Assembly: GCA_030704615.1 (NCBI GenBank)
Contig: CM060732.1
Span: 50,282,001-50,346,000, forward strand
Reading direction: 5' to 3'
Source of the DNA: Takakia lepidozioides
Taxonomy: Eukaryota > Plantae > Bryophyta
Length of the DNA: 64,000 bases
The notes beneath the pieces were generated by a model. It searched no databases and had not been told where the DNA came from. It saw nothing but the letters and a program-made list of their open reading frames with translations. A program made the position numbers and the translations under genes. Below are positions 5,730 to 56,028 of this stretch, piece by piece; the stretch's first letter is position 1, and every line of letters starts with the position of its first letter.

Positions 5730-5740
5730 TGTGATATTTG

Positions 5741-7688: not shown

Positions 7689-8229
7689 TGTCGTGCGCAT
7701 ACATATCGCTACACAACTACATCGCTGTCCAAAACCACACAACACATGTGCACACCACACACTAGTATACCACTAGTCCACCACTAGTCCAACCACTAGG
7801 CTACAACTAGTTAGTCACTAGGCTGCCACTATGCTGCCCACTATGGCAGTCACTAGTCCACACAATGATAAAGAAGAAGAATACAAGCACGAGCTCACAA
7901 ATCTGAAGCATAAACTCATGCATATATAACCTCATCACTCAAATACAAGTCAAGCCAAGTGCACCCCATGCCATGGGGAATCCACACTACGGCGCCATAG
8001 CTAGGCGCGGTGAGGCTCAACTCGAGAAAGATGAGCCTTCCGCGCTTGCCGTGAAGATAACCACTCCAGGGCCTAAATCTGCCTTGACCCCTGGATTGAC
8101 ACTTGGGCCAATCCCAAATGTCAATATGTAAAAGCTAGCTATTTCCTAGCTAGTTTTACACTAGTGGTAAAATAACTTGACAGCTGTCGTGCGCATACAT
8201 ATCGCTACACAACTACGTCGTTGTCCAAA
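7689..8229 (-). mobile_element. Isolated 3' terminus (LTR plus partial duplicated unit) of the DNMT-Gypsy family
   Basis: Nearly identical to 26805-27357. TGTC...GACA block 7689-8182, then gc, then a truncated second A unit at 8185-8229. Confidence 0.9.
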
Positions 8230-11060: not shown

Positions 11061-11859
11061 AATTTATTGATGCCAAATCTCGGTTGGGACTTGCTCCGAA
11101 GAAACGGTTTGACAACATATCGATGGTTGTCAATACAGTTTGTGATGATGACTCTGTTGTCTTCGAGGCGGTTACAGCGTAGGGGATTTGTTTTAGGGGG
11201 TATTTTGGACCCTCAAGTATTTCTTTCTTTGTTGACCCCTTTAAAAGGGAAAGGGGCTGATTAGGGTGATCTATTGGTGAGGAAATTGCATGCTTTGGAG
11301 AGAAGGAGGGCGCTAGGAAGGCCGATCAGATAAGCCCAGGGAGAGCCGAAGGAGACTTTAGAAGTGAGAGTTAGAAGGAAAAGTAGCTAGAGACAGGCGC
11401 GAACCAAAAGTACTTTGTCCATGTTTTACGGCTACAGTAACCCCACGTGTTAGAGCCAGGGGTAGAAGACGACGCTTTTCACGAGGGGAAAGCTGGTGGG
11501 TTATTTTAAATATAGGGGGCGTTGAAACTAGGCTTGGGCCCACCCCTGGAATGTATTAGGAAGGGCGACAGGCCCGTTTTGCCACTAACGAATGTGCAGC
11601 GGAGTCTGATCCGACGACTTCCGTTCATCCGCGGAATAGGCAGCACTTCCCGCGACGGAGGAACGGATCCCGGGCGTTCCCCGGGGTTCCATTGAGTTCC
11701 TAGGGGGTTCCCACAACCCATTGGGAGGTTTTTTCGTCTCTGGAGACTCCTCCTGCGCCTCTATTTGGGAGGTATTTTTTCTGGAATATTGTTTTTAAAA
11801 AAAATTAATTTTTGCTTTTTGGAAGAGGGAAATTCCTTAATTAGGATTGCCTTTTTTTT

Positions 11860-14294
11860 TTTAACCGATCGGCATTGGTAAATACAATTGATATGCGAGG
11901 ACGATACAATGTTGACCTTGTTGTATTTGAAGCGAAAAAAACGTAGCCAATACCATAGCTCGTTCTTGATTGTCTCCAATTTCACTTGTCCATGGTTGGC
12001 ATCGTTTGTCATCTTGAATGGGTTGCACACAAGTAACAATATGCCGACATTGCCTTGGCCACTAAGGCCACTAAGGTTAGGCATCATCACATTATGAAAT
12101 GAATGGAAATCTTCTTGCCCGGCGATATCCCATAAAGATATTTGAATGTTGTTAAGCATTGTAGTCTCAACCTCGATCCCTCGTGTGCCTTGCAACTCCT
12201 GTTTGGATTGCAATTTTGAGAGTACAATCATGGCCTTCCGCCATGGTTTAACCAACACATTTGAAGCCTCATATGAAATCCTTCGAGCCATTGATTTGCG
12301 CAACGTTGTTTTCCCTAGAACATAACAGACATATCATCAAAATGCATATGTAAACAGCATTTTTTGTCTTTCTTATTTGTTCAGAAGCAATATTGTAAAT
12401 ATCACCTATCATAGTCAAGAATATTCATATTTTTTCAAGTATTTACCATGACTATAGTGCTACCAAACCATAATATGTTCGGATTAGAAACATTTATTTT
12501 TTGGATAAATCCAGAACATACCAAACATACCGATTCGGTAGCTCAGTTGCCTACACTAAATACCACCCAGATGATTCTCGGTCAAGTCCGGCTACCTCGA
12601 CGAGTGTGGTATGTTCTTCTCCCTGTGTTCCCTTGGGTGGTGTCCCATACGAAAGTCTTCACATCGAGGTTACTACGAAAAAGGTGATTTTCTTCTCTCA
12701 TTATAATTAAAGGCCTGATTTGTGAGCTGTCGCTCCCAGGTGTTTTCTCTCTAAAAATAACAATTTTTTGATAAAATAAAAATACAATAAACATAGTTCT
12801 TCCTATATAGCTATTTTTATATCTATTATTTTTATTATTTTTATTATTTTCACTTAAATACATTGTTTTGAAAATGAGAAAGTTTGATTAAGATGGCCTA
12901 TATCCCTTTATCCCGAAAACATGAAAAATAAAATGGTAGTCTAAAAATGATCTTAGAATGCACACACAATATAATATAAATATAGTGAAGGTTTCTTTTT
13001 ATTACCAGCTTGACTGTAGCCGCAAAGGAACAAACCCGCTGCATTTGGAGTCACGACCTTCATTCCTCTCAACACCTCGGCGTGCTCGGTCCTCACTTTA
13101 CTCTGCAACCGGGCATACACCACCGCTGCCTTGCCTTCCGCCGCCAAGGGAGTGCCGTCTAGGATTAGTGTGTGTAGCCACAGATTGACTCCCAACAAAT
13201 CCATGATTGTGGCAAACACCGTCTCCCCAGCAACACCCCTACAACGTTGCAGATCAAGTGATGTCAAACAAGTGTTGGTGGAGCAAGTGATTTGACAATA
13301 TCTTTTTGGGACATCCCATCATTCCCCGACACATTGAGATGAGTCAATGTGGAATTGCATTTCAACATGTTGGCCAATGCAGCGGTTGCTCTCTCCCAAT
13401 TTCCCTTGTCATGCCCCCAATTTCTGTCATACATGCTCTGAGAGTAGCTAACGTCAAGACAAGTTAGTGAAGCGTTGCGAAGGAGATGTGTCGCTAGCGC
13501 CTCCACACCATATGCACCTATTGGGTTTCCAGAGAGGTCGAGCTCTTGCAGAGTGTTGTTGGTGGCCAGAGCCCGCCCAAGCTTAGTAGCGCCTTCCGAC
13601 GTCATCCCCCAACTACTAAGGCGTAGCGACAGCAACGAAGAATTGCTGCACAACATCGCTGCCACATGCTTGGCTCTCACGCGACACTTTGAGCCTCACC
13701 AGCTCACCGTAAACATCAATGTGTAGCTTCTGCAGCGCACGGTTGGAGGCCGAGGCAAGCGGAACCACCAACACTCGCACACTCTCTGCATCCAAATTCT
13801 GCACTTTTATCAGGCGGAGAGAGTGCAGGCTACCATTTTGACGCAACGCGTATGTTCAGGGTCACACCATCCAATTTAAGTTCCGCTAGAAAAGTGTTCA
13901 GGCGAAGCATTTCTGCGACGTCTTCTATGACATGGCTCCGCACCTGCATCCCTGCGTAGATCTCCAAGCGTTCTAAAGTTTGGTTGGCGTGCAAGCCTCT
14001 GCAGAACTCCTGCACCTCCGCTTTTACGTGATCTGCCTCTTCAGCCCTCGTTGCAAAAAAATCTAACCACATGGTGGAAACTACGGAGGAGGAAGTAAGT
14101 GCACGGAGAACATCCAACCGAGTGTGGTGGGCGCGGCTCGCATCTTTCTCCGAAAGAAATTTGTACACAACACTCTCTTTGTTAGCGAAACGTATCTCAA
14201 CCTCAGATTCCCGTAAAACTACAAGATCTGGAGAGCGAGGTGAGATTGCTGAAAGAAGATCTCCGAGCTCCTGGAAAACGTTATCGCTCGCCAT
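11860..14294 (-). pseudogene. TORNADO1-like LRR-Roc GTPase gene, copy 2 (exon 14294-13006, intron 13005-12315, exon 12314-~11860)
   Basis: GT-AG splicing restores the P-loop LFLCGYSQA-G-KTTLRKS. Also present are G2 (TRGIEV), G3 (SLWDIAGQEDFH) and ELWYWLRF. Several frameshifts occur in the LRR part, and it is 3'-truncated before COR. Confidence 0.85.
12537..12752 (+). mobile_element. tRNA-derived SINE in the Roc-gene intron (5'-truncated paralog at 3678-3825)
   Basis: Head ggtagctcagttg (A box)...ggtcaagtcc (B box). The tail ggcctgatttgtgagctgtcgctcccaggtgttt is shared with 56463, 56567 (reverse complement), 61147, 61871 and 62562. Confidence 0.65.
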
Positions 14295-15534
14295 TACAAC
14301 CGGAAGAAAAGGGACCCTCCAATGCGACGACCGCTTCCCACAAACCCAAGTTGCTATAGAGGCAATAACGTTTTACACGTCGTGGGTAGCAAACCAAGTA
14401 ACAAGGAGAGTAGAGCGCTCGAGAACTTGGTACAAAGAAGTTGAGAATCGGACGGACAAATTGCCACTGCACTGCAGAGTCACTAGGCTCCCCGTCGAGC
14501 CGTGCACTCATGTGCAGCAGAGAGCGCAGCACAGGGCAGCCCTTGAGGCGATCAGCCACCATGACCGGGTGCAGGAGCCAAGACCATCTTGGATGAAGTC
14601 TGCACTGAGCCCGGTGGCCTGGTCTTCGTAATTTGCTGAGGAGTGAAAAGTGCAGAGCAAGAAGGCTTTCGAGAGTGAGTCGTCAGCGTCCTTATTACAA
14701 AGGAAGATCTGACAAGGGGAGACATGCAGCTTCACAAGGGAGCATTGAACTTAAGGATCCTTGTCTTCTGGATATATTCAAAGTCCACTCCAGGCAGTCA
14801 AACCAGAAAACCTAACAAAGCTAAAAGCTTTCCTTTCCTATGTGATATTTGTCAACCTAATTAATATGCTTGCCTGCATCGCTGAAATCACAACCACTTG
14901 GACCCACCAGGTACCGACAATGGTGTGGGCGATCAATTCCTGTTCAGCAGCATTACTTACGTACATAGGAAGCTGCTGTGGTTCATGTCACAAACTTAAA
15001 TGCGCTGAATCGAACAAGCGGATATGCTGCCTATTCTGAGTTGTGCAGCTTATGGTCTGTGACCAACCTCGTTTAATTACGCTTTGGAGTCTAGAAAGAC
15101 TTGCATCCCAGGTTTAAAAGATGTCACCGGCTATTCTGCCAGGCGGAAGGTATCCCCACACTTGAATTGTTCCAAGTTTTATGTCGGATCAGTGCCTTCG
15201 GTTCCACCACCAAGATGTCAAAGAGGATTTCGATGTCTTCGGATTCAACCAGTGAAGCAACCCCAAAGAAACCATCACTTTCAGACTTCGATTGGAATTA
15301 GTATCCATTCGTGCATCCACGATCCACCCGCCGGGGGTGGACATCAAAGTGTATTCTCCTCGGGCTTTCCACAAGACATCTCCTTCCTCATGAAGTGATT
15401 ATAGCGGATAAATCTGGTGTTCAAAGATTAATCTTTGTTGCTGATCTTTGTCTGGTACAGTATAGATGTTTGCTGGTGGGAATTAAGGCAGACATATAAA
15501 CAGTCATGTGCAATTCATTACGAATTTTGAAACA

Positions 15535-26804: not shown

Positions 26805-27500
26805 TGTCGTGCGCATACATATCGCTACACAACTACATCGCTGTCCAAAACCACACAACACATGTGCACACCACACACTAGTATACCACTAGTCCACCAC
26901 TAGTTCAGCCACTAGTCCAACCACTAGGCTACAACTAGTCAGTCACTAGGCTGCCACTATGCTGCCCACTATGGCAGTCACTAGTCCACACAATGATAAA
27001 GAAGAAGAATACAAGCACGAGCTCACAAATCTGAAGCATAAACTCATGCATATATAACCTCATCACTCAAATACAAGTCAAGCCAAGTGCACCCCACGCC
27101 ATGGGGAATCCACACTACGGCGCCATAGCTACGCGCGGTGAGGCTCAACTTAAGAAAGATGAGCCTTCCACGCTTGCCGTGAAGATAACCACTCCAGGGC
27201 CTAAATCTGCCTTGACCCCTGGATTGACACTTGGGCCAATCCCAAATGTCAATATGTAAAAGCTAGCTATTTCCTAGCTAGTTTCACACTAGTGGTAAAA
27301 TAACTTGACAGCTGTCGTGCGCATACATATCGCTACACAACTACATCGCTGTCCAAAACCACACAACACATGTGCACACCACACACTAGTATACCACTAG
27401 TCCACCACTAGTCCAGCCACTAGTCCAACCACTAGGCTACAACTAGTCAGTCACTAGGCTGCCACTATGCTGCCCACTATGGCAGTCACTAGTCCACACA
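26805..27500 (-). repeat. 3' terminal structure of the DNMT-Gypsy: A (27500-27313), gc, B, A (26992-26805)
   Basis: Two 188-bp A units differ at one base. Block 27310-26805 has TGTC...GACA ends. A PPT-like AGTTAGGGGGGCG lies at ~27515-27503. Confidence 0.9.
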
Positions 27501-27760
27501 ATCGCCCCCCTAACTGGTGCTTAGGTCCCTCTAAGTCCAGGTAGCCACAAGATGTGATAGTGACCATAGCCTCACTAAGTCCTCCACCACTATCCCTACT
27601 ACACTCAAACTCGATAGATCAAGAGGCCGGGTGCAAGAGTTGCCCCATCGTTAGTCGCCGTCTTGCAACCTGTGAACTTGAGCTTGGGATCTCATGTATT
27701 GACTCCTATGAGCTTGGCCTCCCATGTCTTGTTAGCTGCCTCCAGTCATGTCCACTGCCA

Positions 27761-29185
27761 CTATCCCAAGCAATGTGGACACAACCAATCTCCGTCAGGA
27801 ACCTTCTCAAGAGGTGGTGTCAAGCATCCCATATGCCAACCCTTTGAGCATTGATCACACACCAGCATGGTGGCTGCCCCTTTGGCAGACCCACAGAGCA
27901 TGCACCTCAAACCTGCAGGTACCACTGCCAAGTTTGGGTCAACTCTGCCATCGACATTGGGAAGGTGACATGACGCACAATTACGCACATGGTCCTTCCA
28001 AGTCATGCCATCCCGACCCTCTAAGATCAGGACCCCAGAGGGCAACACCTCTCGAACCCTCAAAATAACACGCCCTGCAGTAACATCCAGAGTCGTAGGA
28101 GCAGTCTGCTGCAAATAAACATAGTCACCAGGGCTAAACCTCCGAACCCCAGGACGATATCCTCCACCACGTATAGTGGCATACCTCAACGTATCACGGT
28201 GCTATACAATGGCAAGGTTCTCAAAAGCCATGGGCATGACTTTCTTGAACAACTCTGCACGCTGATCACATGCACGTACCCACACGTCCGGATCGTCAAG
28301 GTTAAGGACTTGAGCAGTGTCCCTACTAACGGTTGCAGGCAAATCCGGCTCTCGGCCAAAGAGAAGGAAATATGGTGAGAAGGAGGCAAGTGATGCTTGT
28401 TTGTTGAACCTGTAGCCCATGGCTAACCAAGGAACCTGAAGATCCCAATCTCCTAGGTGTCCCTTCTGCAAGCCATATTTGCACAAACCCCTCTTCACCG
28501 TCTGAACAACTCTCTCTGCTAAGCCATCGGCCTCAGGATGATCCCGAGAAGTGGTGCGGTGGTCTATCAAGGCTTTATCACACAAAGCCTGAAACTCCCC
28601 CAAGAACTCTCTCCCTTGGTCCGTGAGTACCTCAGCTGGAGCACCAAATCGGCTAAGCACACGATCCAAGAATGCATACGCAGCCCCCTCACTAGCCTTG
28701 TCAGGCAATGGAACCAACTCAATCCACTTGGAGAAGTGCTCCACCATCACCAACACATATCTGTGGTGGCACATAGTCAGTGGCAACGGTCCTGCGAAGT
28801 CAAGACTCCACCTGTAGCCCAATCCCATGATTGGTAAATGATGCAACTGTGGTGTAGGGGCGTTGAATGAAGCACGCACCATGTCACACACCATGCACCT
28901 AGCCACGAACTGTTGCACCTCTGTATGCATACCACGCCACCAATACTGCCCTTGCAGTAAACTGTGAGTGCGTCGCACTCCAAAATGCCCCAACTCCTCA
29001 TGGGCATGCCGCACTAACCGTGCACGTTGTGTGGGGTGAGGCACAATCCTCACCCGACCATCCTCCCACACTCGAAGTAGGTGTATCCCCTCCCACTTGA
29101 ACCTCTTGGCTCGTTGCAGGATCCGATCCCTCTCCCTAGCAGTCACACTGGCTGCCGTGTCTCCCGTGCGGAGGTAATCCAACAC
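27761..29185 (-). pseudogene. Integrase (HHCC + DDE) with C-terminal PHD finger
   Basis: One frame with an internal TAG at 28202. The PHD CMLC...MLVCDQCSKGWHMGCLTPPLEKVPDGDWLCPHC is C4HC3. Confidence 0.92.
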
Positions 29186-29242
29186 AGCCGAATCCTCATG
29201 TATATCTCTGGCACCACTTGGCTCATCACTAGCCTCAGGGTC

Positions 29243-30800
29243 CTAAGACACTTCGTCTACAGTCATCCCTGTTGTAGGTCCAACCTGACCTCCCGATGCC
29301 AAGATACATAAAAATGCAGATGCGTGCCATCCCGGCACCATCTCCTCGTCCGTCTCACCATGCCACCGAGCTCCTGTGTCATCCTGCTGGCTCATGCATG
29401 GATTGCGACTCAATCCATCCGCATCCCGATTGACCAAACTTGGTCGATGCACAACCTGAAAGTCATACTCCTGGAGTATAAGTGCCCACCGTGCAAGCTT
29501 CCCCGTAAGCTTGTCTGACTCCATCAACCACTTGAGTGGCTGGTGATCCGTGACAAGGGTGAAAAGATTGCCGTATAGATAGCACCTGAAGTGTGCCACA
29601 GCCCACACTGCAGCTAAGCACTCTCCCTCATATGAGCTATACTTAGCCTCTGCAGCGTTGTTCGAGCGGCTAGCATAAGCCATTACGAACTCTCTTCCCT
29701 CATCATCCACATGTGTGAGCACCGCTCCAAGCCCCAGCATGCTCCAATCCGTATGCAGCTGAAAGGGACGCCCCTTGATAGGTCGTCTCAAGATAGGCGC
29801 CGAGGTCAACCTCGCCTTGAGCTCTTGAAAAGCTCGTTCTTGCTCATCTTCCCACTGCCACTCCTGGTCCACCTTGGTCAGCTTGGTTAGAGCCTTTGCA
29901 ATGGTACTAAATCCCTTGACAAACCGTCTATAATAGTTTGCCAACCCCATGAAAGCTCGAACTTGGCTCACATCCGTGGGGCGTGGAATTTGTGCAATGG
30001 CCGCTACCTTAGTCTGCTGTACCCCCAATCCTCCAGGATATATCATGTGACCCAGATACTCAATCTGGTTGTGGAAAAACTTGCACTTCCCCGGATGCAA
30101 CTTCAATCCATGCGCTCTCAAGCGCTCCAATACCACCTGAAGGTGTCTCTCATGCTCCTCCATCGTAACACTAAAGATGATGATGTCATCTATGTAGCAC
30201 CGAGCAAAGTCCACCCCTGCTAGAATCCTATCCATGACTCTCTGAAACTCTGCAGGAGCATTCTTAAGCCCAAATGGTAAGAACCGTCACTGATATAGGC
30301 AATCCTTGCCGTGCTCATTGATCCCCCAGAATGTCGTCTTCTGCTTGTCCGCCTCCTTGATTGGCAACTGGTGATATCCGGATCGTAAATCCAAAGTGCT
30401 AAAGGCCTTAACATGCCCGATGGCATCAAAGATCTCCTCTGGTGTTGGCATGGCATACTTATCGGACTTGGTCTGACGATTTATAGGCCGGTAATCACCG
30501 CACATATGTCTCTCCGTCCAATTGCCATAGACATCCTTCTTGGCTGGCATCACTGTGGCTGAAGCATACTCTCCACCAGAGAGCTCCACCAAACCTGCCT
30601 CCCAGAGATCTTGAGTCCTCATCTGAATCAAAGACCTCTCCATGTCACTGTATCTATAGGGTCTCCGAAAGATTGGCGTGTCAGTGGCCAATTCAATACG
30701 GATCTCTTGACCCTTCAGTGCTCCCAAGTCCTTCAAACTGAAGGCAAAGCAATTCTTGTAAGCCCTCAGGAACCGCCGTATACGTCGTCTCTCTCCTCCG
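29243..30800 (-). pseudogene. Reverse transcriptase and RNase H
   Basis: One frame with a TGA at 30287 (Q*RFLPFGLKNAPAEFQR); YIDD; LVTDHQPL. Confidence 0.95.
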
Positions 30801-31199
30801 CTGACAATGGGTCCAATGTCAGGCTCCCAATTGTCCTCCGTAACTGCAACCTTAAGTCCAGTGGGCCTAGAGGTAGAGGACGCGTCCAGTGGTTGCTATG
30901 TTGCAACCTCTTGAGCAGTACTCCCTACCTGCTCAGTCAATGACAAGGCCTCATCCTGCCCCATCATCTCATCCTTGAGGACCTCCTCAACCCGAGAAGA
31001 ACCCCAACCTCATCCATCATAGCCGCCTTGGCTGCCAACTCCCTCTGAAGCTCAAGCACCTCCCACGTGTGCCATGAATGCATGCACCCCGTGGTCCACA
31101 CATGCTCGCCCTCACTCACTGCCTGTACCGTCTCGGTAGGCAGAGAGACCATTGAGGAAAGTATACTCCGCACTCTGCATTGCTCAGCCAGAGCCAAGC

Positions 31200-32150
31200 T
31201 GATAATCCAGGTCAAGCAATTGAGATCCATTGCTTGCCCCAACACTGACGTGATGCCTCAGAAAGAGACGACACCGCCGTGGTACTAGTGGTAAAACCCA
31301 TTGCCCGCTCACGCTCGTCAGCATTAGGCTCCACTAACTGTTGCAACTGAGCATCCCACAGGAGGCCAGGTCCACTATCTCGGAAAGCATGCGATCCTGG
31401 GAAGCTGAGCAGTGTAGGTAATGCTGCTCGTGGTTGACCCACCTTGTTGACCACTGCCAAAGGCGAACGGTCATCGTGTCTCACACGCTGAGACTGCCTC
31501 TTTGTGTCCAGAATGTTATCCAATGTGAGATGTGCTGGCCGCTGCACCCCATCAAATGCACGCTTGAGTAGTGCGGGTGGCATCAAGTTAGTCCACCATA
31601 GCCGTGGACGATGAGCCCGTGACCCCACTGTAGCTGCATCTAGCAACACTGCTGACCCAAGCCATGACCGGACTTGATGCACACTGGCCATCACCCTGGC
31701 CCAAGAATCGCCCATCAGTGGCACATTCTCCAAGATGTATGCTGGAGATACAGCTTGATGAAGCTGCAAGTGGCGCAAAACCCGCACCATCTCCCAAAAC
31801 AGACCCGACCTCGAGTCTCGCAATCCATTGTCATGCCCGGCTGATGAATGCCCTTGGCAGGGCCAACCTGCCACTACCAGATCAATGGAGCCAACCCGCT
31901 CCAAATTCCTGCGCCCCCAGCAACGAAATGTCTGCTGGCAAGGCCTGCTGATATCCACGAATTGCAGACACCGACAACAACTCAGGGTACCGCTGCACCA
32001 ACTGAGCAACATGGCGAAGTGAAACGTGTCGTGCAGTCTCATCTCTCTCCACATACAGGTAACGCCAAACTCGTATACCTGCCTGTAACACAGCAGCCAA
32101 TCCGGTGCTGATCCCGCCAAACAAGTCCAGAAGACAAATGCCTTCATCCG
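31200..32150 (-). pseudogene. C5-cytosine DNA methyltransferase domain (DNMT3/DRM-like motif style) inside the pol polyprotein
   Basis: Motif I LLDLFGGI, II YVERD, IV DLVVAGWPCQG, V DSRSGLF, VI YILENV, VIII AHRPRLWWTN, IX ERERAMGF, X LGQAMD. Frameshifts at ~31903 and ~31245. Confidence 0.92.
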
Positions 32151-35062
32151 AATACTGCCACATAATAGGTGTGGTGTCCAATGGAGAGAATTGAGGTGGT
32201 GCTGGTGCAATCCCCGCACTCTCCTCCTCTCCTGACGGTACAAAAGCCTCCACCCAGGCTTGTTGCACCCGTCGATCAGCCTCCCGCTGCAAATCCTTGC
32301 TTGTGCCCCACAATGGAGTCTGAGCAACCATGGTAGGCAACTCCGCCATACCATACATGTCATCCTGCTCTCCCGGAGGTGGTACATCCTCTGAATGAGC
32401 GTTGCCCTCAACCAACTCTCTAGGCCAACTCACTGCCACTATGAATGTTGCTAGTGTCGGCATCTTGCCTCGCTGGGCAACCGCAACTCCTCCTATGAAC
32501 GTCACAGGGAGCTGCACACGCCGGCCCTCCCCTGACTGCCATGCAGGCCTATAGGAAGCTGACTCCTCCCAAAAATCCAGGGTGAAGCCCATGGGGTACA
32601 ACACTGCCCCACCAACCAGGACATCGTATGAGACCGCGTCTGTCACAATGGCCTTGGCTCGCATCACTGAGCCATCTGTAGGGTGATCCGGCCGTAGTCT
32701 GATAGCCAACTCACGTCGTGTCATGCCCCGAGCTTGCTCCGATCCTCCCAGAGACGTCTGTATCTGGAAAAGACAAGGCTTTATATCCGCCTCCGTGAGG
32801 CCCAAGCCTGCAATAGCAGCTCTGCCCAGCATCAGTGGCTGAGCTCCCGAGTCCAACAAGATCCGCAGTGGCCGGTACCTCTTGCCTGCCGGCCCACTCA
32901 AACAGAAAATGCCATCCTGGTTGTCTAACATGACAACTCCAGGTGTCACCATGGCGCGCTCAATGGCTGGCCTAGCTGGCAGCTCCATCAACCTGGCAGC
33001 TGCAGCTTGCCATGGCGCCGCCGTGGCAGTCTTGACCCTCAAATCCGAGGATCCCTCCGGCACTACACCTCCTACTATCTCCGCAGAAGATGAAGTAACC
33101 TCCCCACTCTCACAGAGTGTAGCTGCCAGCCTGAACACCTCAGCTGGTCTTACCCCCGGCGTCGCAATCATGGTAGCCGAGAACAATGGAGCCTGACACA
33201 CAGATATGGCCGCTCCTAGCAGCACACTAGCTGCCGTAGCCTTGGCGACACTAGGTAGTGGTGCTACCCGTGTAGCTCTCCCCAATGGCATAGTAACCTC
33301 CGCCTCGGTAAGAGTCGGGCAGAACTAGGTGCCATGGATGGCGTCGACACTGTCTCCACCAATGTGAATGACTGAGGAAGCCTAGCCTGACGGCTTGCCT
33401 CCCCACGCTGTGGATCCAACTCCACCTCTGCACCTCGTGGCTCAGGAACTCGAGCTGCTCCTCGAGTCACGGCTGCAGCAGACTCCACCTGCACTAGTGG
33501 TAGTGCTGCTCCACACATGAATCCCATGCCTCCCATATCTCCTCCCTCAGGAGTAGGAGGTGGACCATCTGGCCTTAGAGCCGGTACCACCTGAGCTGTA
33601 GCCATGGCAGCAAGCCTCTGCTCTAGCTGTTGAAGCCAGTTGGCCATGCCTTGGTCAACACCTTGACCTCCGCGTCCTTGGCCATGTTGAGCTTGCCCTT
33701 GGCCTGCACCTCGTGGCTGGCCACCTCGTCCTCTCTGGGCTGCTCCACCTCGCCCCCGGCCACCATTGTTCCCTTGGAACTGGCCTGGACGCAACTCAGG
33801 ATGCAAACCATAACACTGGGCCTCTCCATGCCCGTGCTTGCCACAATGCCCACACTGCAACTGTGCAGGCTGTGCATGTGCCGGCCCTTTGCCTCCCTCT
33901 GGGCAATCCTTCTTGACATGGGGTCCTCCACATGTCCAGCACACCACATCCGCCCGTTGTTGGCCAGCAAATGAAGGGAGAGACCCCTGCATCTGAGGTC
34001 CTCTCTGCCCTTCCCTGCGCTTCACCTGAGCCCCCTTGTTGCCTTGAGCAAGTTGAGGTAGTGGTTGGCTAGGAGCACCACTACCCCGTGGTGTCTCCTT
34101 AGCAAATCCCACCGTGACCACTCGTTCCTCCACCATGTTGAGCTCTATCCGCTCTGCCAGCAAAAACACATTTGCTAAGGTAGGTTGGGCCGCTTGTAGG
34201 AGAGTTGCATCCCGCACCCTTCTCCTCAGCTCCTTGTCCAATATCCCATACCAGAATTGGACTGCCTGAGCTTCCGTAACCCTTGGGTTACATTTATCAA
34301 GCGCCTCATGCGAGTGAAAGCCTCCCTCAAGCTCTCGGTCGGTTTCCGTTGGAACTCTTGCAAGCTCCGCAACTTCTCTGTCATCACCCCTTGGTAGTTC
34401 CCTCTCAACTCTTCGAAGAACTCCACAACAGGGTTGAAGGCAGGCACGGGTGCTAATGCTGGTGCGGTAGTGGCTTGGGTGGACATCGTAGCTACTGTAC
34501 CACCAGTCCCACTGCTACTTGCTGAAGCTGCCGGTGCAGTGGCAGGTGTAGCCACTGCCCTCGTGGCTCTAGTGCCCCTAGTGATGGAGACATAGTCGGG
34601 TGACCAGTACATCCTCCACTCCTCGATCTCAACCTCATGCCCCCGCCTGAACTCATGGTAATCATCCATAGGCGGCCCCTCAAGGTGCTGAAACAGCCCC
34701 TTCCATGCCATGAAAGGCGTAAATAGTTGTGGATTGCGCATTTGCTGCAAATCACACCAACTATCAAACTCTTGGATAAAATCATCCAACTCGATGGTGC
34801 CCACCGCCCCAGAGTACCTTCGTGGCCCCTTGGTAGTTCCATACATCTCCTCCATTGTGTCCCACAACAATGGCAAAGAAACAACTTGCACCGCCGGTAT
34901 GAGTCCTCCTGATTCACAATCCGAATCAGAACCTTCCGTAGAAGACACAGGAGGTGAAGGTGGCCTAAACCGCACACCTCGTCTCGTGTACCCACTAGTA
35001 TCGCTAGTGCTCGAACCGGCACTGTCCCCAGCAACTAGTGGCACCTCCGTGTTGACACTCAA
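32150..35062 (-). pseudogene. gag and aspartic protease
   Basis: Gag-like LRSLQEFQRKPTESLREAFTRMRRL, two CCHC knuckles, and RILLDSGA...YDVLVG. Frameshifts near 34280 and 33300. Confidence 0.85.
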
Positions 35063-35699
35063 CCGGTCATGAACATGTCCCTAACCCCTCTCCACAAGGT
35101 AACCGGGTAGAGAACCTGTTGCGGCTTATGGTTTGGAATACTAAGTTCCTAACATAGCCTACACCTGTACCTGCATCCACCGCAAGCACTCCTATGGTTG
35201 GCTGGTCATCACCTCCAACCTCACCACAGGAGAAACAATGATGGTCTGGCTGGTCATCACCCCAGCCTCACCATCGACAGCATGCTCTAGGACTGGCCGG
35301 TGATCAAATCCGGACCAATCACCTATAAAAACAAGCGCCCACACAAAACTAGCATGGCGCACAGTCAAGCATGCAGGTATGGAGGGGATCCAAACACAAG
35401 AAATCAGAACGACAACTCCTCACACCAAAAACAACTCCACGGTGTTGCTCCTGCAAGGACCCCCAGCCCAAACCCACCCGGACTGACTCTTGCCTCCACC
35501 TACGGAAAGGTCTTGGCCTAATGAGAGGGTGGAAACTACGAGGAAGAGAAGCTAAAGCAATGCCTACCCCAGCATGCCCTCATCCCACACTCTTCCTCTC
35601 CTCTCTTCCCTCACTTGCATGACCATGGGAATATCATGAAGATACTCCTCAAACCGCCCTCCACGAGCTTCAAAATTCGGCCTTCAAGACCACATGCCA

Positions 35700-37120
35700 G
35701 TCCTTAGGCAGTCCACCAGTGCCTCCACGAGTCAGCACAGGCCGTCCACAGTCAACACGGGCCACCACACAGACCAGCACAGGCCCACACCCCTCACTGG
35801 TCACAGCCGTCACAGTCCCATGGCCACTGGGCACAGCCTGTCACAGCACTCACAGCCCGTCACAAAGCGCCAAAGCCTTTGTCACAGCCTGTCAAAGCCC
35901 CACAGGCACAGGCACAGCCCGCCACAGCCTGTGTCACAGCCCCTCACACCCGTCACAGCTTGCCACAGCCTGTCACAGCCCCTCACAGCCCCACAGGCCA
36001 CAGGGCAAGCCCGTTCACAGCCCCACAGGCCCTAGCCAAAAAAGCCTGTCACAACCCTAAACAGCCCGTCACAGCTCGCCCCAGCCCCTCACAGCCCCAA
36101 AGGCCTCAGGCACGGCCTGTCACAGCCCCTCACAGCCCTCACAGCCCCAAAGGCTCAGGCACGGACCTTGTCACAGCCCTCACAGCCCAAAGGCCACGGG
36201 CACAGCCTGTCAGCCCCTCACAGCCCCTCACAGCCCAACAGTCCACCGGCACCAGCCTGTCACAGCCCCGCACAGCCCGTCCGCCCCACAGGCCACTGGG
36301 CACAGCCTGTCACAGCCTTTCTGTCACAGCCCCAAAGGCCTCAGGGCACGGCCTGGTCACAGCCCCAACACAGCCCGTCACACAGCCCCAAAGGCCTCAG
36401 GCATGGCCTGTCACAGCCCGTCACAAGCCCGTCAAAGCCACAAAAGGCTCAGGCACGGCCTTCATCACAGCCCCTTCACGACCCAAAGGCCACGGGCACA
36501 GCCTGTCACAGCCCCTCACAAGCCGTCCAAAGCTGCCCCACAGGCCTCAGGCCGGCCGGACACAAGCCCGTCACAGCCCATCCACAGCCCCCAAAGGCCC
36601 GGGGCAGGCTTGTCACAACCCATCAAGCCCGTCACAGCCCCAAAGGCCTCAGGACACGGCCTGTCACAGCCCTCACAGCCCATCACAGCCTAAAGGCCAC
36701 GGACAGCCTGTCATAGCCCCAAAAGGCACCGGCACAGCCCCTCAAGCCCCAAAGGCCTCAGGCACGGCCTGACACAGCCCCCTCACAGCCCGTCACAGCC
36801 CCAAAGGCCTCAGAGGAGGCACGGCCTTTTTTTTGTCACAGCCCCTCACAGCCCATCACAGCCACCAAAGGCCATGGCACAGCCTGTCACAGCCCCTCAC
36901 AGCCCACAAGGCCACTGGGCACAGCCTTTTGGTCACAGCAGCGGCACAGCCAGTCACAGCCCACAGGCCACTGGGCACGGCCTGTCAAAACCACGCACAG
37001 CCCTCACAGCTCGCCACAGCCCTCACAGCCCCAAGGCCTCAGGAACGGCCTGTCACAGCCCCTCACAGCCCGTCACAGCCACCAAGGCCCACAGGGACAA
37101 GCCCGTCACAGCCCCATCCA
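35700..37120. repeat. CACAGCC-based degenerate tandem array
   Basis: Very many cacagcc / gtcacagccc / aaaggcctcaggcacggcctgt variants. Confidence 0.9.
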
Positions 37121-37711
37121 TGGCCGCTCTGGAAGTTAGCCATTTTCCAGGGGTTTAGCCCCGCCAAGCTAGGGTCTGTGTCTCTTGGACTCTAGGCTTC
37201 TTTCCACCGAGCTATGGCTGGCTGTGAGGAAATCAGCAAGGTATTCTTGCTCTTTCGGCTCCCACACACCACCATAGTAGCCCTAAGCCATGAGGTGGTT
37301 GCCACAAACCAAGCCTTCTTTCTCACTTAGCCTCCCCAAACACGCCACTAAACTCAATGGCAAACAACCAAAGCCCTGCTGGTTCCCAAGCCCTTGTGAC
37401 GCATCATTCAAGCACTCTCCTTGGCCATAGCATCTGTCTTAGAGCCAGCCCCCTACACCCTGCTGCTTCAAGAGTTGCGCTCCCTTCAAGCTTGAAGTTG
37501 AAACCCCAACTCACATAGGCCCTACAAGTGCTTTTCTTTCACTCCAGTGGAAACCAGCCCTAGACCTTCCCTTCTAGCTCTCTAAGCTTGAAAACAAGAG
37601 CCTCAATGGCTGAAGGCATGCACATGCCCCACTCTCACCATAAGAGAATCAGCTCCTTTGCTTCATTTCTTGCACCCACAAACCTGAAAATACAAAGCTT
37701 CATCAGCTGAA

Positions 37712-38211
37712 NNNNNNNNNNNNNNNNNNNNNNNNNNNNNNNNNNNNNNNNNNNNNNNNNNNNNNNNNNNNNNNNNNNNNNNNNNNNNNNNNNNNNNNNN
37801 NNNNNNNNNNNNNNNNNNNNNNNNNNNNNNNNNNNNNNNNNNNNNNNNNNNNNNNNNNNNNNNNNNNNNNNNNNNNNNNNNNNNNNNNNNNNNNNNNNNN
37901 NNNNNNNNNNNNNNNNNNNNNNNNNNNNNNNNNNNNNNNNNNNNNNNNNNNNNNNNNNNNNNNNNNNNNNNNNNNNNNNNNNNNNNNNNNNNNNNNNNNN
38001 NNNNNNNNNNNNNNNNNNNNNNNNNNNNNNNNNNNNNNNNNNNNNNNNNNNNNNNNNNNNNNNNNNNNNNNNNNNNNNNNNNNNNNNNNNNNNNNNNNNN
38101 NNNNNNNNNNNNNNNNNNNNNNNNNNNNNNNNNNNNNNNNNNNNNNNNNNNNNNNNNNNNNNNNNNNNNNNNNNNNNNNNNNNNNNNNNNNNNNNNNNNN
38201 NNNNNNNNNNN
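37712..38211. other. Assembly gap (500 N)
   Basis: Run of N; contiguity across it is unverified. Confidence 1.
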
Positions 38212-38243: not shown

Positions 38244-41151
38244 ATGGGAGTGTTTGAAGCAGAAACCACTGCCTTTGAAGAGCAAGGCTCTTCACACAGT
38301 GAGGGTGGACTGGCAGTGCAACCCCAGTCTAAGAGACAGAGGCGGGGAAAGACTGTAGTGGCGGATCCACTGGCTTCACGGAAACCGCATGATAATGTTT
38401 CCCAAGCTCTTGTGCAAGAAGGGGCACAGCAGCACACAGAGCTGCTATTATTGGAAGCAGGGCCTTCAGAGAGGGAAGAGGAAGTCACTTCGATACCACA
38501 ACCACCACAACCAATTGACTCTGTTGTTTTGGAGGCTCCACAATTAGTATATGCTGTGGCATCATCACCAATTGCTCTGGAAGGAGAAAGGTTGGACATA
38601 CCAACTACAGAGCAGGTCGTGGCCGAAATTGAGAAGGGGGACCTTCTCTATGAAAATTCTAGTTTGGTCAGGGAAACAGTGATTCCGGAGGTGCAGCGGT
38701 TGTCCAGGGGAAACCCTGCTGTTGTTGTAATACCCACACCTCTGACGGAGGTACAACAGGTAGAATGTCAAGACACTGCAGCACCTGTAGCGGATGAGGT
38801 GGTTCAGGAAGAAAATCTGGTGGGGCAATGGCCTGAATGGTTTGTGAGGCATCACACTGTTGAGGATTAGGGAGAACAGCAGCAAGCTCACCATGATGAC
38901 CCTCAACAGACCATGCTTATGAGTTCCATAACCAGGACACTTAATTTGTTGGGCACTTATGTCAAATCCCATGTTCCAACTACCCAATTGGCAGTTTTGA
39001 GGGAGGAACTCAGGAAGGAGTTTGAGGCTCGACTTGCCACTGAGTGTGCAAAGTTGATGAGGAGGTCACTATCAAATTACAGCAAGAGTTAGAGGATACA
39101 ACAGCTGCTTTGCAATTGGCCAAGGAACTTTGATTGAAGCAGGCCTCGCGGAGGACCAGTTGCACGAAGCACATAAGCAACAGCTATACCAAATGCAGGT
39201 GAAGCATGAGAACAAGTTGCAAGAAGTGAATGCACTACATACGGAGTTACAGACGGTGCATGACAGGATGACCATACAATGTGCTACACTCACAACTACG
39301 CTTGAGCAAACTACATTAGAAGTTAACAGCCAAGCGGAAAGATGTATAAAGGCACAGACAGATAATGTCGAGCAGACAAAACTCATTATTGATATGAAGA
39401 ATACAATCTGTCATAATGAGAATACTTTCAAGCAATACAGGCAAGTTGAAGCTGACCAAGAGAGGTACATCTTGGAATTGCAACAAACGGTCATGGCCAA
39501 TAGAAATGAGCTCTCTGTCACTAACAAGGCTTGGAGGGAAGCCAATAATCTGCTTGCTGCCTATGCGAGTTTGGTTGAACCTCATGCGAAGCGCATGGAG
39601 GCTTTACAGCAGTAGTTAGATATGTACAAACTCAGAGAGGAGCAGACTCTCAGAGGTACCACAACCAACTTGGTGGATAACCACTTTCTGCAGGTTTGGT
39701 TAGCACAAGGACAGGTGGAAGGCAAAGCACCACGGAAGCTCACCCAAGGCGAGATGAATGAGCTCAGACTGCAGGTGCAGAACATTGCCACAACTACTAT
39801 AGACAATGTCTATAGTAGGATAGCGGAGTTACAGGAGGATGTAGACGGCCTGCAGACTCAGGTGGAGGACCTCACTTCAAATATCGACAAGAAAGTCTTT
39901 GTATCTGAGGAGCAGCTGATGGCTTCTTATTTACAAGCCAGAACTCTAGCTTTTCAGTCTTCCTCGCAGGGGTTGCAGGAGATGCCAGTGGTACAAGAGC
40001 CAGTGCTACCAATACCACAACAAGTGACTGTGCCAGTAGCTGACCCTGTTGTTACTACAGCCACACCACAGCCGCCACAACCTGAGGTATGGGGGGATGC
40101 TGCTTTTAACCCACCAAAAACTCCTGCTGCACGGGAGTACAATCGGGCTATGATTATGCCCTTCAACCAAATTCCAATTGTGTTGGATTTGGCTTGGAAG
40201 GAATTTAGTCCTCCACAGTCGTTGGCACATTACTACCAGATCATGCGCATTTGGCTGCCAGTGGCAACTAGGACTAAGGTTCTTCCGAACAATTGACCCA
40301 TTGAGGATCATCACTTTGCGAGGTACTGGCATGAGGCAAGTACCAGGTTGAAGGAATTAATTGCCTTCCAAGTTGTACATGGATTCATTTATACCAAGAC
40401 CAAGGAGGTAGCAAGTATTGTCATGGGCTGCGGGCTATATTACGCTGCTTGTTTTCTGGCACGTTATCACATTGAACAGCAGAAGATGCAATCGCGCTTT
40501 CTGAGTTATTCCAGTGGGGATCATTGGATCTTACCTGCAGTGCCACCTCATATGTACCTATATGAGGCAAAAGTTATGATGCAAAAGGATTCTCAAATTC
40601 GTTCATGGTTTCATGCGGCCTGGAACAATTTGTCAACACAGAAATTCGGGCCTGACGATATTTTCTTTAAGGGCCATGAGGCATGGAAAAACTTGCACAA
40701 TTCACAAGTCATTGGTACACCACTCACTTGGACAGACAAGGAGTTCAGGGTCTTCACCAATTTTGCAATTCAACGCTTATAACAAGTTTTACACATTAAA
40801 CTTCCAGACATGGTGGGACCACATTGTATGCCCCAGAGGATTCCAGTTAGAGTTCGACCGTTAAAACACCTCAGGGGGGAAGACGATTCTGATACTACTG
40901 GTTCTTCAGGGGACTCTTTTGACATGGCAGAGGACTATGCAATTCAGATGGCAGAGAAGAAGCGACGGGGGTCTCCTATGCCTGAAAGATTACCTCGATA
41001 TCAGCCAAAGGAAGGACTGACATTTCCAAGTAGTGCTCAATCATCTCCCTCAACTAGTGACAGGACACGGGCTCGCACACGGAGTCCTTCACGAGACTCT
41101 CAACGTCACAAGGGTGCTCGTTCACAAAGGTTTGCAAATCCCAAACAGTAA
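38244..41151 (+). pseudogene. Long extra ORF (~950 codons, coiled-coil rich) in the 3' internal region of an LTR retrotransposon
   Basis: ORFs at 39130, 39622, 40348 and 40810 share one frame, separated by single stops. Content is Q/E/L heptad-rich. A PPT and LTR follow immediately. Confidence 0.65.
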
Positions 41152-42596
41152 ACCGTGAGGACACAACTTTTTGAGAGGAGGAGGGGTAAATGTTAGAGGG
41201 CTGCTTGGGACTTAGACGCTTTTACGGGATCTGTGGGGTACCCTTAATTTTTACACAGACTGAGACCAACAGGAGCCTTAGGGGTGACAGCAACAGGCTT
41301 TAGGGGGAAAGATACACAGCCCAACACAGTCCATCACAGTCCAACACAGCCGACATAGTCACCACAGCCGTCACAGCTTCGCACAGCCAACACAGCCAGT
41401 CACAGCCCGACACAGCCGCCACAGCTTCGCACAGCCCTACACAGCCCGACACAGCCAGTCACAGCCCGCCACAGCCTGATACAGCCAGTCACAGCTGGGG
41501 AACAATTATCATTGGCAGGGAACGACGGTGGGGGAACGACATCTGAAAAAGGAACGTGTACTACAGGGATGACGGTCAGGGATGCCTCGGCGTGAGCCTG
41601 GTCACGTGAGCGCAACTGCGCTCACGCCAAGTCACCTTGCGCAAATGCCACGTCACGGGGCTCACTCCACGTCATCACACGTGAAGGCCGCGTCACCACG
41701 CGCCCAGAAAGAAGTGGAGTGTATTCCCGCGGATTGACACCCTTTACCGCGGAAACAAGCTGGACGACATAATAAAAGGCATTGAATAAAGGATGGATGA
41801 ATGTACAATTGGATGATAAACAGATGGATGAGTGTGAAAAATGAATGTAGATGGATGAATGAGGGATGGATAAGAGTAAAATGGATGAATGTATAATGGA
41901 TGTTGAGCAATGACAAAAATTCATGACAGGAAGATGCATGACCAAATCTTTTGACGAATGCACCTCGTATATGAAATGAGTGTGGAAGGTTTGTGGGGTG
42001 GATTAAAGAGTACAGAGGATGAATGTACAATGGATGTTGTACAAAGGAAAAAATTCATGAATGGAGCACGCATGAATACAGTGTAGATGAATGCACAATG
42101 GATATGAGAAGAGTCAGGGAGGTTTGTGAGATGGATTCATACATATTGCAATTTAAACGAAAGTTGATTCTGTGATTATTATTTGTTCTAAAGGAACAAC
42201 TACGGTGGAGGAAGGGGATTCAACGTTTTCCAGATAATATGAAAATGAATAATAAAAGAATACAGTTCAGTCTGACTCAGAGTCAGTACAATGTATCCCC
42301 GCTTCCTCTGCATCTAAGTCTAAGTATTCTAGAACACCGGATCCACGCTGGATACACCTACGGCTGGCCACTAAAAAGTCAGGGGATAGGGACTCGGCCG
42401 CGTGAAGTGCCATTGCCTCGGCATAAACAGGAAGAAGAAAATTGGAAAGGGGGCTGTCGAAAACAGACTCGCCAGAAATGACTGTATCTCCTGAAGATCC
42501 ACCGCTGCCTTTCCTGAAAGACAGCCTGAAAAAGTTATTACTGTAACTTTGATGTTATCGAGAAATTGAGTATGAGTCCCAAAGAGGGTTTAGCAC

Positions 42597-53591: not shown

Positions 53592-56028
53592 GGATGCAGA
53601 TGGGTTGAGTCGCAATCCATGCACGAGCCAGCAGGATGACACTGGAGCTCGGTGGCATGGTTAGACGGATGAGGAGATGGTGCCTGGATGGCATGCATTT
53701 GCATTTCTGTGTATCTTGGCAGCGGAAGGCCAGGTTGGACCTGCAACAGTGATGATTGTAGATCAAGTGTCTGAGGACGTTGAGGCCAGCAATGAGCAAG
53801 GTGGCGCCAAAGATATACATGAGGATTCAGCTGTGTTGGACTACCTCTGCACTGGAGACACGACAGCCACTGTGACTGCCAAGGAGAGGGATCGGATCCT
53901 ACAACGAGCCAAGAGGTTCAAGTGGGAGGGGACACACCTGCTCCGAGTGTGGGAGGATGATCGAGTGAGGATTGTGCCTCACCCAACACAGCGGGCACGG
54001 TTAGTGCGGCATGCCCATGAGGAGTTGGGGCATTTTGGGGTGCGACGCACTCATAGTCTACTGCAGGGGCAGTATTGGTGGCGTGGTATGCACACAGAGG
54101 GGCAACAATTTGTGGCTAGGTGCATGGTGTGTGACAGGATGCGTGCTTCATTCAACGCCCCTACTCCACAATTGCACCCTCTTCCGATCATGGGATTGGG
54201 CTACAGGTGGAGTCTTGACTTCGCAGGGCCATTGCCACTGACCGCCACAACAAGTACGTGTTGGTGATGGTGGAGCACTTCTCCAAGTGGATCGAGTTGG
54301 TTCCATTGCCTGATAAGGCTAGTGAGGGAGCTGCGTATGCATTCTTGGATTGTGTACTTAGCCGATTCGGTGCTCCAGCTGAGGTACTCACGGACCAAGG
54401 GAGAGAGTTTTTGGGGGAGTTTCAGGCTTTGTGTGACAAGGCCTTGGTAGACCACCGCACCACTTCTCGGGATCATCGTGAGGCCGATGGCTTGGTAGAG
54501 AGGGTTGTTCAGACAGTAAAGAGGTGTTTGCGCAAGTATGGCTTGCAGAAGGGACACCTAGGAGATTGGGACCTTCAGTTACCTTGGTTAGCCATGGGCT
54601 ACAGGTTCAGCAAACAAGCATCACTTGCCTCCTTCTCACCATACTTTCTTCTCTTTGGCCGAGAGCCGGATTTGCCTACATCCATTCGTAGAGAAGTTGC
54701 TACAGTTCTTAACCTTGATGATCTAGACGTGTGGGCACGTGCATGTGATCAGCGTGCAGAGTTGTTCAAGAAAGTCATGCCCATGGCTTTCGAGAATCTT
54801 GCCATTGCACAACATCGTGATACGTTGAGGTATGCTACCATACGTGGTGGGGGCTATCGTCCTGGGATCCGGAGATGCAACCCTGACGACTATGTTTATC
54901 TGCAGCAGACTGCTCCTATGACCTTGGATGTGACTGCAGGATGTGTTATTTTGAGGGTTCGAGAGGTATTGCCCTCAGGCGTCCTGATCTTGGAGGGTCG
55001 GGATGGCATGATTTGGAAATTGCGCGCCATGTCACCTTCCAAATGTTGATGGAAGGGTTGACTCAAACCTAGCAGTGGTACCTGCAAGTTTGAGGTACAG
55101 GTTGTGTGGGTCTGCTAGAGGGGCAACCACCATGCTGGTGTGTGATCGATGCTCTAGAGGTTGACATATGGGATGTTTGACTCCACCTCTTGAGATGGTT
55201 CCTAATGGGGATTGGTTATGTCCGCATTGCATTGGATAGTGGGAGTGGATACAACCATAGAAGGCTAACAAGAAATGCAAGGCCAAGCTACTAGGAGACC
55301 TTCAACACACGAGATCCTGGCTCAAGTTCACAGATTGCAAGACGACGACTAACGATGGGGCTACTCTTGTACCCGGCCTCTTGGTCTATAGAGTTTGAGT
55401 ACAATAGGGACAATGTTAGAGGACTTAGTACGGCTGTGGCTATTACATCTTGTAGCTATCTGGAGTTAGAGGGACCTATCCACCAGCTAGGGGGGCGATT
55501 GTGGCAGACTACTTTATTGTGCATATATGTGTGGTGTAGTTTGGACAACGATGTAGTTGTGTAGCGATACATATGCGCACGACAGCTGTCAAGTTAAATA
55601 AACACAGTGTGAAACTAACTAGAATAAATCTAGTTATTTGTATTTAACACTTGGATTTAGTTCAAGTGTTAAGTCAGGTGTCAAGTTTAGCTTGACACTT
55701 GAACCATCTTATCTTCACGAGAGTGTCAATTGTGCGACTCATCTCTCTCGAGTTAAGCCTGCACGACAGAGCTCCCTCGCTGCTTAGCATCTGAGTGTAC
55801 TTATGGAGGGAGAGTAGGATGTTGTGGGGTGGAGTCCCCATAGCTTGGGGTGCCCCTGGCTCGACTCTTATTTTAACGAGTGATTGTATTGTATTTCGTG
55901 TTTTGTGTCAACAGAGACAGTGTGAGTTTAGTTTTCATATCATTGTGGCAGACTACTTTATTGTGCATATATGTGTGGTGTAGTTTGGACAGCGATGTAG
56001 TTGTGTAGCGATACGTATGCGCACGACA
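53592..56028 (+). mobile_element. 3' half of a second PHD-Gypsy copy (end of RNase H, integrase, degenerate PHD, A-gc-B-A terminus)
   Basis: Highly similar to the reverse complement of 27500-29425. A units at 55500-55584 and 55944-56028 (85 bp, 2 differences). TGTC...GACA block 55587-56028. Confidence 0.93.

Follow-up and report, generated by a model that had tools for sequence, protein, structure and literature searches.

A decayed Ty3/Gypsy element of Takakia lepidozioides with a DNMT3-like methyltransferase, a PHD finger at the integrase end and split terminal repeats

In 2018, DNA methyltransferases (DNMTs) borne by retrotransposons had been found only in algae that are hard to manipulate, and what they do has been an open question from then on. 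The closest described system is KnitGypsy-Dnmt3 of Klebsormidium nitens, which combines Gypsy domains with DIRS-like repeats and has a Ka/Ks under 0.2 (de Mendoza et al. 2018, PMC5890265). The 2018 survey took in 7 land plants, with no Marchantia or other liverwort, Sphagnum, hornwort or fern among them. Its statement is repeated in PMC12344493, and the name 'streptophytes (Gypsy-DNMT3)' is used in a preprint (bioRxiv 10.64898/2026.05.21.726589). Gypsy-DNMT3 elements with split repeats are therefore already known. Here we describe such an element from the moss Takakia lepidozioides, in a stretch of 64,000 nucleotides (hereafter, the window; assembly GCA_030704615.1, contig CM060732.1, positions 50,282,001 to 50,346,000). 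It is a decayed Ty3/Gypsy copy on the minus strand, with a coding span from 34855 to 27761 that translates as gag, protease (PR), C5 cytosine methyltransferase (MTase), reverse transcriptase (RT), RNase H (RH), integrase (IN) and a PHD finger.

The MTase was recognised by a match to PF00145 (DNA_methylase; E=1.9e-12, 47.7 bits, cut-off 22). An earlier reading of the DNA, made from its letters without database searches (hereafter, the sequence-only reading), had placed a C5-MTase motif series between PR and RT, and all of the motifs that it named are present in the translation in linear order:

32110-32133, minus strand: motif I, LLDLFGGI
32038-32055, minus strand: motif II, YVERDE
31854-31877, minus strand: motif IV, VVAGWPCQ
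31719-31736, minus strand: motif VI, ILENVP
31593-31619, minus strand: motif VIII, RAHRPRLWW
31293-31328, minus strand: motif IX
31222-31242, minus strand: motif X, LGQAMDL

This order is not the permuted one of DRM enzymes, and the domain is intronless. When the Marchantia protein P0005, the product of the first open reading frame (ORF1) of a related element, and a 37-sequence family profile were compared with the PDB, DNMT3A/B/C were the top matches (2e-25), followed by DRM (6e-11), HhaI (2e-7) and DNMT2 (5e-4). A structure model of the relative P0008 (predicted local distance difference test 82.9, predicted TM-score 0.84) fits DNMT3A/B best, with a TM of about 0.8 of the target. On these comparisons the domain is DNMT3-like, with DNMT3A/B as its closest solved relatives. 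Among the related loci introduced below, the Cys of PCQ is kept in 71/73 and the Glu of ENV in 72/77, and the motif VIII Arg of DNA-type enzymes is conserved alongside that Glu.

The limits first proposed for the element (27761 to 33291) proved too narrow, as the copy runs from 26805 at least as far as the assembly gap at 37712. Its parts, and the two further copies in the window, are as follows:

34856-37711, minus strand: 5' leader, with a GGCTGTGA-rich tandem array of ~1.3 kb at about 35755-37120; it reaches into the assembly gap
33300-34855, minus strand: gag, with its ATG at 34855 and CCHC-type knuckles at 33903-33941 and 33813-33854, placed by tblastn with P0005
32520-32931, minus strand: aspartic protease, LLDSGA at 32842-32859 (weak Asp_protease_2 match, E=0.009, under the cut-off)
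31222-32151, minus strand: DNMT3-like C5 cytosine methyltransferase (PF00145, linear motifs I-X, PDB profile and the structure model of the relative)
30890-30898, minus strand: conserved in-frame stop in the context TAG CAA CCA, closing ORF1 (Gag-PR-DNMT); stop codon at 30896-30898
29400-30799, minus strand: RT (YIDD at 30185-30196) and RNase H (RVT_1, RT_RNaseH); premature stop at 30287-30289
27960-29242, minus strand: DDE integrase with HHCC zinc domain and C-terminal region (Integrase_H2C2, rve); premature stops at 29243-29245 and 28202-28204
27761-27910, minus strand: C4HC3 PHD finger (PF00628) closing ORF2; PHD residues at 27764-27910 in translation
27501-27513, minus strand: polypurine-tract-like sequence upstream of B1; an equal tract precedes B1 in related loci
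27313-27500, minus strand: repeat B1 (TGTG...GACA), with 2 differences from B2 over 193 nt
27307-27316, no strand: palindromic B/GC/A junction GACAGCTGTC, occurring 3 times in the window, once per copy, and also in related loci
26994-27310, minus strand: repeat A2 (TGTC...TCA), from sequence comparison; a single T, then B2, follows
26805-26992, minus strand: repeat B2 (...CACGACA), the element's right end, from sequence comparison
53592-56028, plus strand: second copy, of a sister subfamily and 5'-truncated, comprising the RNase H end, IN, PHD and B-GC-A-B; 87.6% identity over 1934 nt
7689-8229, minus strand: third copy, a 3' remnant (partial B, GC, A, B); 96% identity

The family layout is A, gag-PR-DNMT3, stop, RT-RH-IN-PHD, polypurine tract (PPT) and B-GC-A-B. 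Assignment to Ty3/Gypsy follows from the PR-RT-RH-IN order, RVT_1, the DDE integrase, TG...CA ends and target duplications of 4 bp, within the usual 4-6 bp; the element departs from that class in having split repeats instead of two complete identical long terminal repeats (LTRs) with a tRNA primer site. Comparison with Rfam gave no match.

The window copy is dead and unable to encode the enzyme. Two frameshifts had been reported in the sequence-only reading, and the two inside the MTase (near 31906 and 31245) are real, but alignment to intact relatives adds three more (near 34279, 33320 and 31001), and the three premature stops, all in RT-IN, went unmentioned there. Host contigs carry indels at 4/5 of the frameshift sites, with a loose end at the fourth, the indels at the two gag sites being seen in other host copies, so the lesions belong to this copy or its assembly and not to the family. 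The intact catalytic residues, which had been taken as a sign of recent function, are thus no such sign in a dead copy, and their retention reflects selection in its ancestors. The second copy has nothing upstream of RNase H and so offers no test of MTase presence or loss.

The window MTase piece matches 100 proteins among 4331 candidates, the best (66-71% identity) from Marchantia polymorpha and Calypogeia fissa, followed by Sphagnum, also at about 70%, and more distantly by Closterium, Chromochloris and Monoraphidium; the family ranges from chlorophytes to bryophytes. With P0005 as query, which itself includes the MTase, 211 metagenome stretches were found to encode a relative, and 80 were kept as loci. 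All 80 carry the MTase, although identical insertions recur in several samples, so that they are not 80 independent events. The loci closely match named Sphagnum proteins, and the tail of P0090 matches their ORF1 end. Where loci span the region, the order gag-PR-DNMT-RT-RH-IN-PHD holds, save for local deletions and insertions. A profile search of cluster representatives returned 655 matches at E up to 1e-30, whose members are unnamed and which show family size only. The family is high-copy in the host: 98,887 contig records of one sequencing run map to a 9 kb stretch of the element, and in host runs whose contigs total 0.3-4 million letters, 21-47% of the element's words are present, measures that do not give a copy number. 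Coverage by host reads, with depth only coarsely measured, is as high over the MTase as over RT and IN.

The DNMT is under purifying selection between lineages. By Nei-Gojobori counts of nonsynonymous (dN) and synonymous (dS) changes between the window and the loci, dN for the DNMT is 0.26 and synonymous sites are saturated (proportion of synonymous differences 0.73), giving a dN/dS of about 0.10; the corresponding values, likewise with saturated dS, are 0.09 for RT, 0.06 for RNase H, 0.11 for IN, 0.17 for PR and 0.32 for the PHD. The trees were built quickly, with neither bootstrap nor a true outgroup, and comprise 131 DNMT and 87 RT domains from 237 proteins, rows of short cover being excluded. 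The DNMT and RT trees are congruent, with the window clustering with liverwort and peat-moss elements (support 97 and 99); in the DNMT tree the window is sister to the liverwort, peat-moss and further close relatives. Chlorophyte-type elements in which the DNMT lies between RNase H and IN form a separate clade in both trees. Two DNMT positions in two congruent clades indicate that the association is old, and that the domain moved once or was gained twice.

The RH-DNMT-IN architecture is found in P0066, P0092, P0116 and about 40 others, with named members from Chromochloris and Haematococcus. All 41 RH-DNMT-IN proteins fall inside one 60-row DNMT clade (support 99); the RT clade that corresponds to it (36 rows, support 99) also takes in DNMT-less members from Tetrabaena. 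Of the 15 proteins listed for the Marchantia ORF1 cluster, four (P0309, P0310, P0311 and P0314) map to the male V chromosome. One locus (L066:967-6081, minus strand) holds a second, more divergent DNMT-bearing element adjoining the main copy, with a duplicated integrase stretch. Two proteins filed under Obscuribacterales and uncultured Synechococcales (P0027 and P0254) are probably from eukaryotic contigs mis-binned in metagenome assemblies.

The MTase had been assigned to the pol frame. It does share the frame of RT, but a family-wide stop, in frame about 110 codons past the MTase core and ahead of RT, places it in the Gag-PR reading frame and not simply in pol. TAG or TAA occupies the site in 46/47 pattern-matched RT starts (31 TAG, 15 TAA, 1 GAG; 50 were examined and 3 were unmatched owing to local lesions), and at none of 1541 other codons do decay stops exceed 37.5%. 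Liverwort ORF1 proteins terminate about 110 residues beyond the same MTase landmark and more distant relatives 115-200 residues beyond it, and the RT-RH-IN-PHD proteins are separate records of 1033-1083 aa. The stop at 30896-30898 is a family trait and not decay. Because it separates Gag-PR-DNMT from RT-RH-IN-PHD, the enzyme is likely made at the level of Gag and the capsid, above that of RT and IN. In its UAG-CAA context the stop is similar to the tobacco mosaic virus read-through signal, the strict read-through motif being CAR YYA.

The C4HC3 PHD finger at the integrase end, where the sequence-only reading had located it, matches PF00628 (E=3.2e-11, 43.5 bits, cut-off 24) and is family-wide. 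Its nearest solved counterparts in the PDB are CHD4, PHF12, KDM5A/B, lid, WSTF, ATXR5, PHF21A, ORC1B, BAZ2 and UHRF1, and most PHDs of that set read the unmodified H3 N-terminus. Among 142 pattern-matched family PHDs, none has Trp two residues before the His, which we take to be the H3K4me3 cage position; Gly stands there in 130/142, and an Asp follows the third Cys in 131/142. A precomputed PHD match exists for most of the 120 listed integrase relatives, DNMT-less ones included, which makes the PHD a trait of the clade, no less widespread in it than the DNMT.

The 3' end of the window copy runs PPT, B1, GC, A2, T and B2, and the other two window copies repeat this pattern. From 37485-37695 a host contig continues for 942 more letters into an A repeat and then into 168 unrelated letters; the 5' A therefore lies in or beyond the N gap at 37712-38211, and the full element would measure about 12 kb. 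Complete A-coding-B-A-B structures are present in loci L028, L056/L078 and L066. Since the element begins with TGTC and ends with GACA, the internal GACA-GC-TGTC amounts to a right end, two bases and a left end, forming a perfect palindrome. Target duplications were scored on related insertions, the left end of the window copy being inside the gap: of the 6 insertions for which both ends are present, 4 have an exact 4-bp duplication and 2 a duplication with one mismatch, compared with 0/30 exact among shuffled pairs, and lengths of 3, 5 and 6 bases do not fit. The long form is represented among these six only by L028 and L056. The 4-bp duplications indicate that a DDE integrase made the insertions, at ends matching the internal junction.

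Among the distinct right ends, 13 are of a short form (A-coding-B), 7 keep the B-GC-A junction intact and 1 has the junction deleted. The short form was considered as a second insertion product and rejected, as a short locus (L014) and a long one (L071) share a right flank at 95%; at least that case reflects a later B-B deletion or assembly collapse. Within repeat A, the 10-mer CTCAAAGAAC (L056:8509-8860) recurs directly after A1, and a GGCTCA...TGAGCC inverted pair is seen in L056 and in the window. The GGCTGTGA-rich array of the leader has a shorter, ~70% alike counterpart at 41314-41495, inside a different element past the gap, which has coiled-coil-like ORFs at 39061-40782 (plus strand) with no significant Pfam match. 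Elsewhere the window contains a pentatricopeptide repeat fragment at 7195-7668 (plus strand; PPR_2, E=8.7e-16), a weak Roc/Arf/Ras-like fragment at 11764-12333 (minus strand; below the cut-off) and a ~2.4 kb block duplicated at 3701-6135 and 12627-15076 (92-96% identity, ~8.9 kb apart) that may mark the ends of another element.

The anatomy of the family is well supported, and from it we infer the functional steps (activity, read-through, histone binding, packaging and integration route). The reading we favour, at slightly better than even confidence, is that intact members would make the MTase at the level of Gag, methylate their own cDNA and integrate at the palindromic junction, with the PHD predicted to tether the integrase to histone H3 tails. 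There is good reason to expect C5 MTase catalysis from the intact domain. It is also probable, if a shade less so, that occasional read-through of TAG CAA yields RT-IN, such that DNMT released by the protease would be abundant in the particle. That the enzyme acts on the cDNA of the element itself or on a fresh insertion, which would arrive with a host-like methylation state, we regard as an even proposition. The PHD would, somewhat more probably, bind the unmethylated H3 N-terminus over H3K4me3 and so bias integration away from active promoters. For the ends, reverse transcription may give DNA bounded by B-GC-A units, and the integrase may then open one GACA/GC/TGTC junction, the GC being removed as in ordinary 3'-processing, to give A-coding-B-GC-A-B; these two events together stand evenly balanced. 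The simplest reading of the repeats would have B-GC-A as the true LTR of the cDNA, with integration opening an internal junction. Foamy-virus integrase cuts a palindromic LTR-LTR junction, which is comparable to the proposed opening.

Several observations weigh against this reading. CpG observed/expected ratios give no clear footprint of self-methylation: they are 0.46 for the window element and 0.64 for the rest of the window; across six loci the element gives 0.50-0.55 and the flanks 0.15-0.55. The dN/dS of about 0.10 is approximate, deep dS being saturated. Among the decayed metagenome loci, dN/dS is 0.39-0.86 (DNMT 0.62, RT 0.42, IN 0.55, PR 0.65, PHD 0.86), although this within-set signal is dominated by post-insertion decay, and the DNMT is stop-free in only 6/69. 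The Tetrabaena relatives P0204 and P0206 show no DNMT, and some algal relatives (P0075, P0056) have DNMT and RT in one predicted protein, so neither the enzyme nor the stop is essential across the clade. In the loci the stop context is CAA CCC, a departure from strict CAR YYA, and an ATG follows the stop. A symmetric circle should also yield the permutation A-B-GC-A-coding-B, which is seen in 0/17 distinct left ends; simple random opening is thereby excluded and the selectivity is unexplained. Finally, de novo methylation was not seen in yeast with the Klebsormidium DNMT, a result that the authors of that work regard as inconclusive (PMC5890265).

The main rival concerns how the ends form. As in DIRS elements, the B-GC-A junction may template both termini of a linear cDNA without any cut, the integrase only trimming GC, and ORF2 may be expressed by re-initiation or splicing, with the roles of DNMT and PHD unchanged. 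This carries appreciable weight while falling clearly short of even. Templated ends would account for A-coding-B-A-B being the only arrangement seen, and they suit the absence of an obvious primer: in related loci A1 is followed by a CTCAAAG-like sequence and not TGG, and L056 has no self-complementary primer of at least 7 nt after A1. Yet B follows the PPT, which should set the plus-strand left end at B and not at A, and the A2/B2 joint, where A ends in CA, reads CA-(1-2 nt)-TG and looks like a joined pair of LTR ends. The ATG after the stop makes re-initiation possible in the loci but not in the window copy, which has none.

A second, rather unlikely alternative keeps the enzyme active but moves its action after or outside integration, to host chromatin, insertion flanks or the element promoter, where it would damp the activity of the element itself or of competitors instead of modifying packaged cDNA. 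An excess of enzyme from Gag-level expression need not be packaged, and host-level effects and self-limitation were both raised as options in 2018 (PMC5890265). Against this, the PHD sits on the integrase in the other ORF, which leaves the DNMT without a targeting domain of its own, and fusion to Gag-PR is the usual route into the particle in established retroelement biology. It is more doubtful still that what maintains the domain is RNA methylation, or a non-catalytic role in binding nucleic acid during particle assembly or strand transfer. The yeast result would agree with such a role, but sequence and fold lie nearest DNMT3 and far from DNMT2, the ENV Glu and the motif VIII Arg of DNA-type enzymes are conserved, and CG methylation has been shown for DIRS-borne DNMT3s. 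The idea that the domain is a single captured host DNMT3 gene, or a nested insertion, that has drifted neutrally in a copy indeed broken in eight places is refuted by the two tests proposed with the sequence-only reading (the domain is present in other copies, and dN/dS between lineages is far from neutral), by its constant position across the loci and across named proteins from three genera of bryophytes, by the congruent trees and even host-read cover, and by the lack of a DUF3444 match on P0005, a domain carried by host DNMT3s of non-flowering streptophytes (PMC6453930).

These elements bring the question of what such enzymes do into a tractable plant. In the model liverwort Marchantia, stop-free proteins of about 1280 aa encoded by ORF1 are listed as hypothetical genes, so that the question can be addressed with existing genetics and methylome data; one Marchantia methylome paper, which counts five methyltransferases, does not include these copies (PMC5784723). 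The combination of split repeats and a DDE integrase suggests an unusual integration route. Search tools that rely on paired LTRs would overlook such elements, which may explain the absence of the family from land-plant catalogues. No description was found of the land-plant copies, the DNMT3-PHD pairing, the conserved stop or the 4-bp duplications in the full-text literature, with figures, Repbase, most subscription papers and bioRxiv supplements outside coverage; bryophyte elements may be in the supplementary DNMT tree of bioRxiv 10.64898/2026.05.21.726589. More tentatively, a green-lineage Gypsy clade, of an age that takes in both chlorophytes and land plants, may have rebuilt the reader-plus-writer logic of animal DNMT3A from separate parts: Gag-level DNMT3 would pre-methylate each cDNA, a PHD of H3K4me0 type would aim the integrase, and this DDE enzyme would open a palindrome inside the terminal repeat rather than use the cDNA ends, a route undescribed for LTR elements.

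Klebsormidium, to which the sequence-only reading had pointed, is the right comparison. KnitGypsy-Dnmt3 and the present family are both Gypsy elements with an intronless, non-permuted DNMT3-type domain, conserved catalytic motifs, purifying selection (here also below a ratio of 0.2) and DIRS-style A-coding-B-A-B repeats. Common descent is likely, although no Klebsormidium DNMT sequence was among the matches and a search with a Closterium query gave no named one; the sole Klebsormidium find is an RT-IN fragment without DNMT (P0154), in a neighbouring subclade whose deep support is weak. The present family differs in its land-plant host and high copy number, and in that the DNMT closes ORF1 before a conserved stop, where that of Klebsormidium is in the Pol ORF (PMC5890265). 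The integrase here ends in a PHD, a term with 0 occurrences in the text and text supplements of PMC5890265 (figures lying outside this coverage), and the portion of that text covered makes no mention of target duplications or a palindromic junction.

The A1-B1-A2-B2 repeats are shared with SymbioDIRS-Dnmt3 (PMC5890265), which also bears a DNMT3, and with the split-direct-repeat elements PAT, TOC and Ngaro (PMC4157794). Those elements use a tyrosine recombinase, for which no match was found in the ORFs scanned; the present family has instead an rve (DDE) integrase, TG...CA ends and 4-bp duplications. Retrotransposons with a PHD, REM1 among them, are known (PMC6673714). In the REXdb paper (PMC6317226) neither PHD nor methyltransferase occurs in the text available, and Phygy and Selgy are described as short elements; the idea of a PHD in Selgy found no support. 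Like chromoviruses, CopiaMBD and REM1, the family ties a reader domain to the integration machinery, but those elements are without a DNMT, and the C-terminus of the integrase here carries a PHD where chromoviruses have a chromodomain. A writer and a chromatin reader are likewise joined in one LTR element in the EpiLTRs, or DAM-LTRs, of Cymbomonas and Euglena (bioRxiv 10.64898/2026.05.21.726589), which pair DAM and a DNMT4-like enzyme with a chromodomain, whereas the streptophyte elements described here pair DNMT3 with a PHD.

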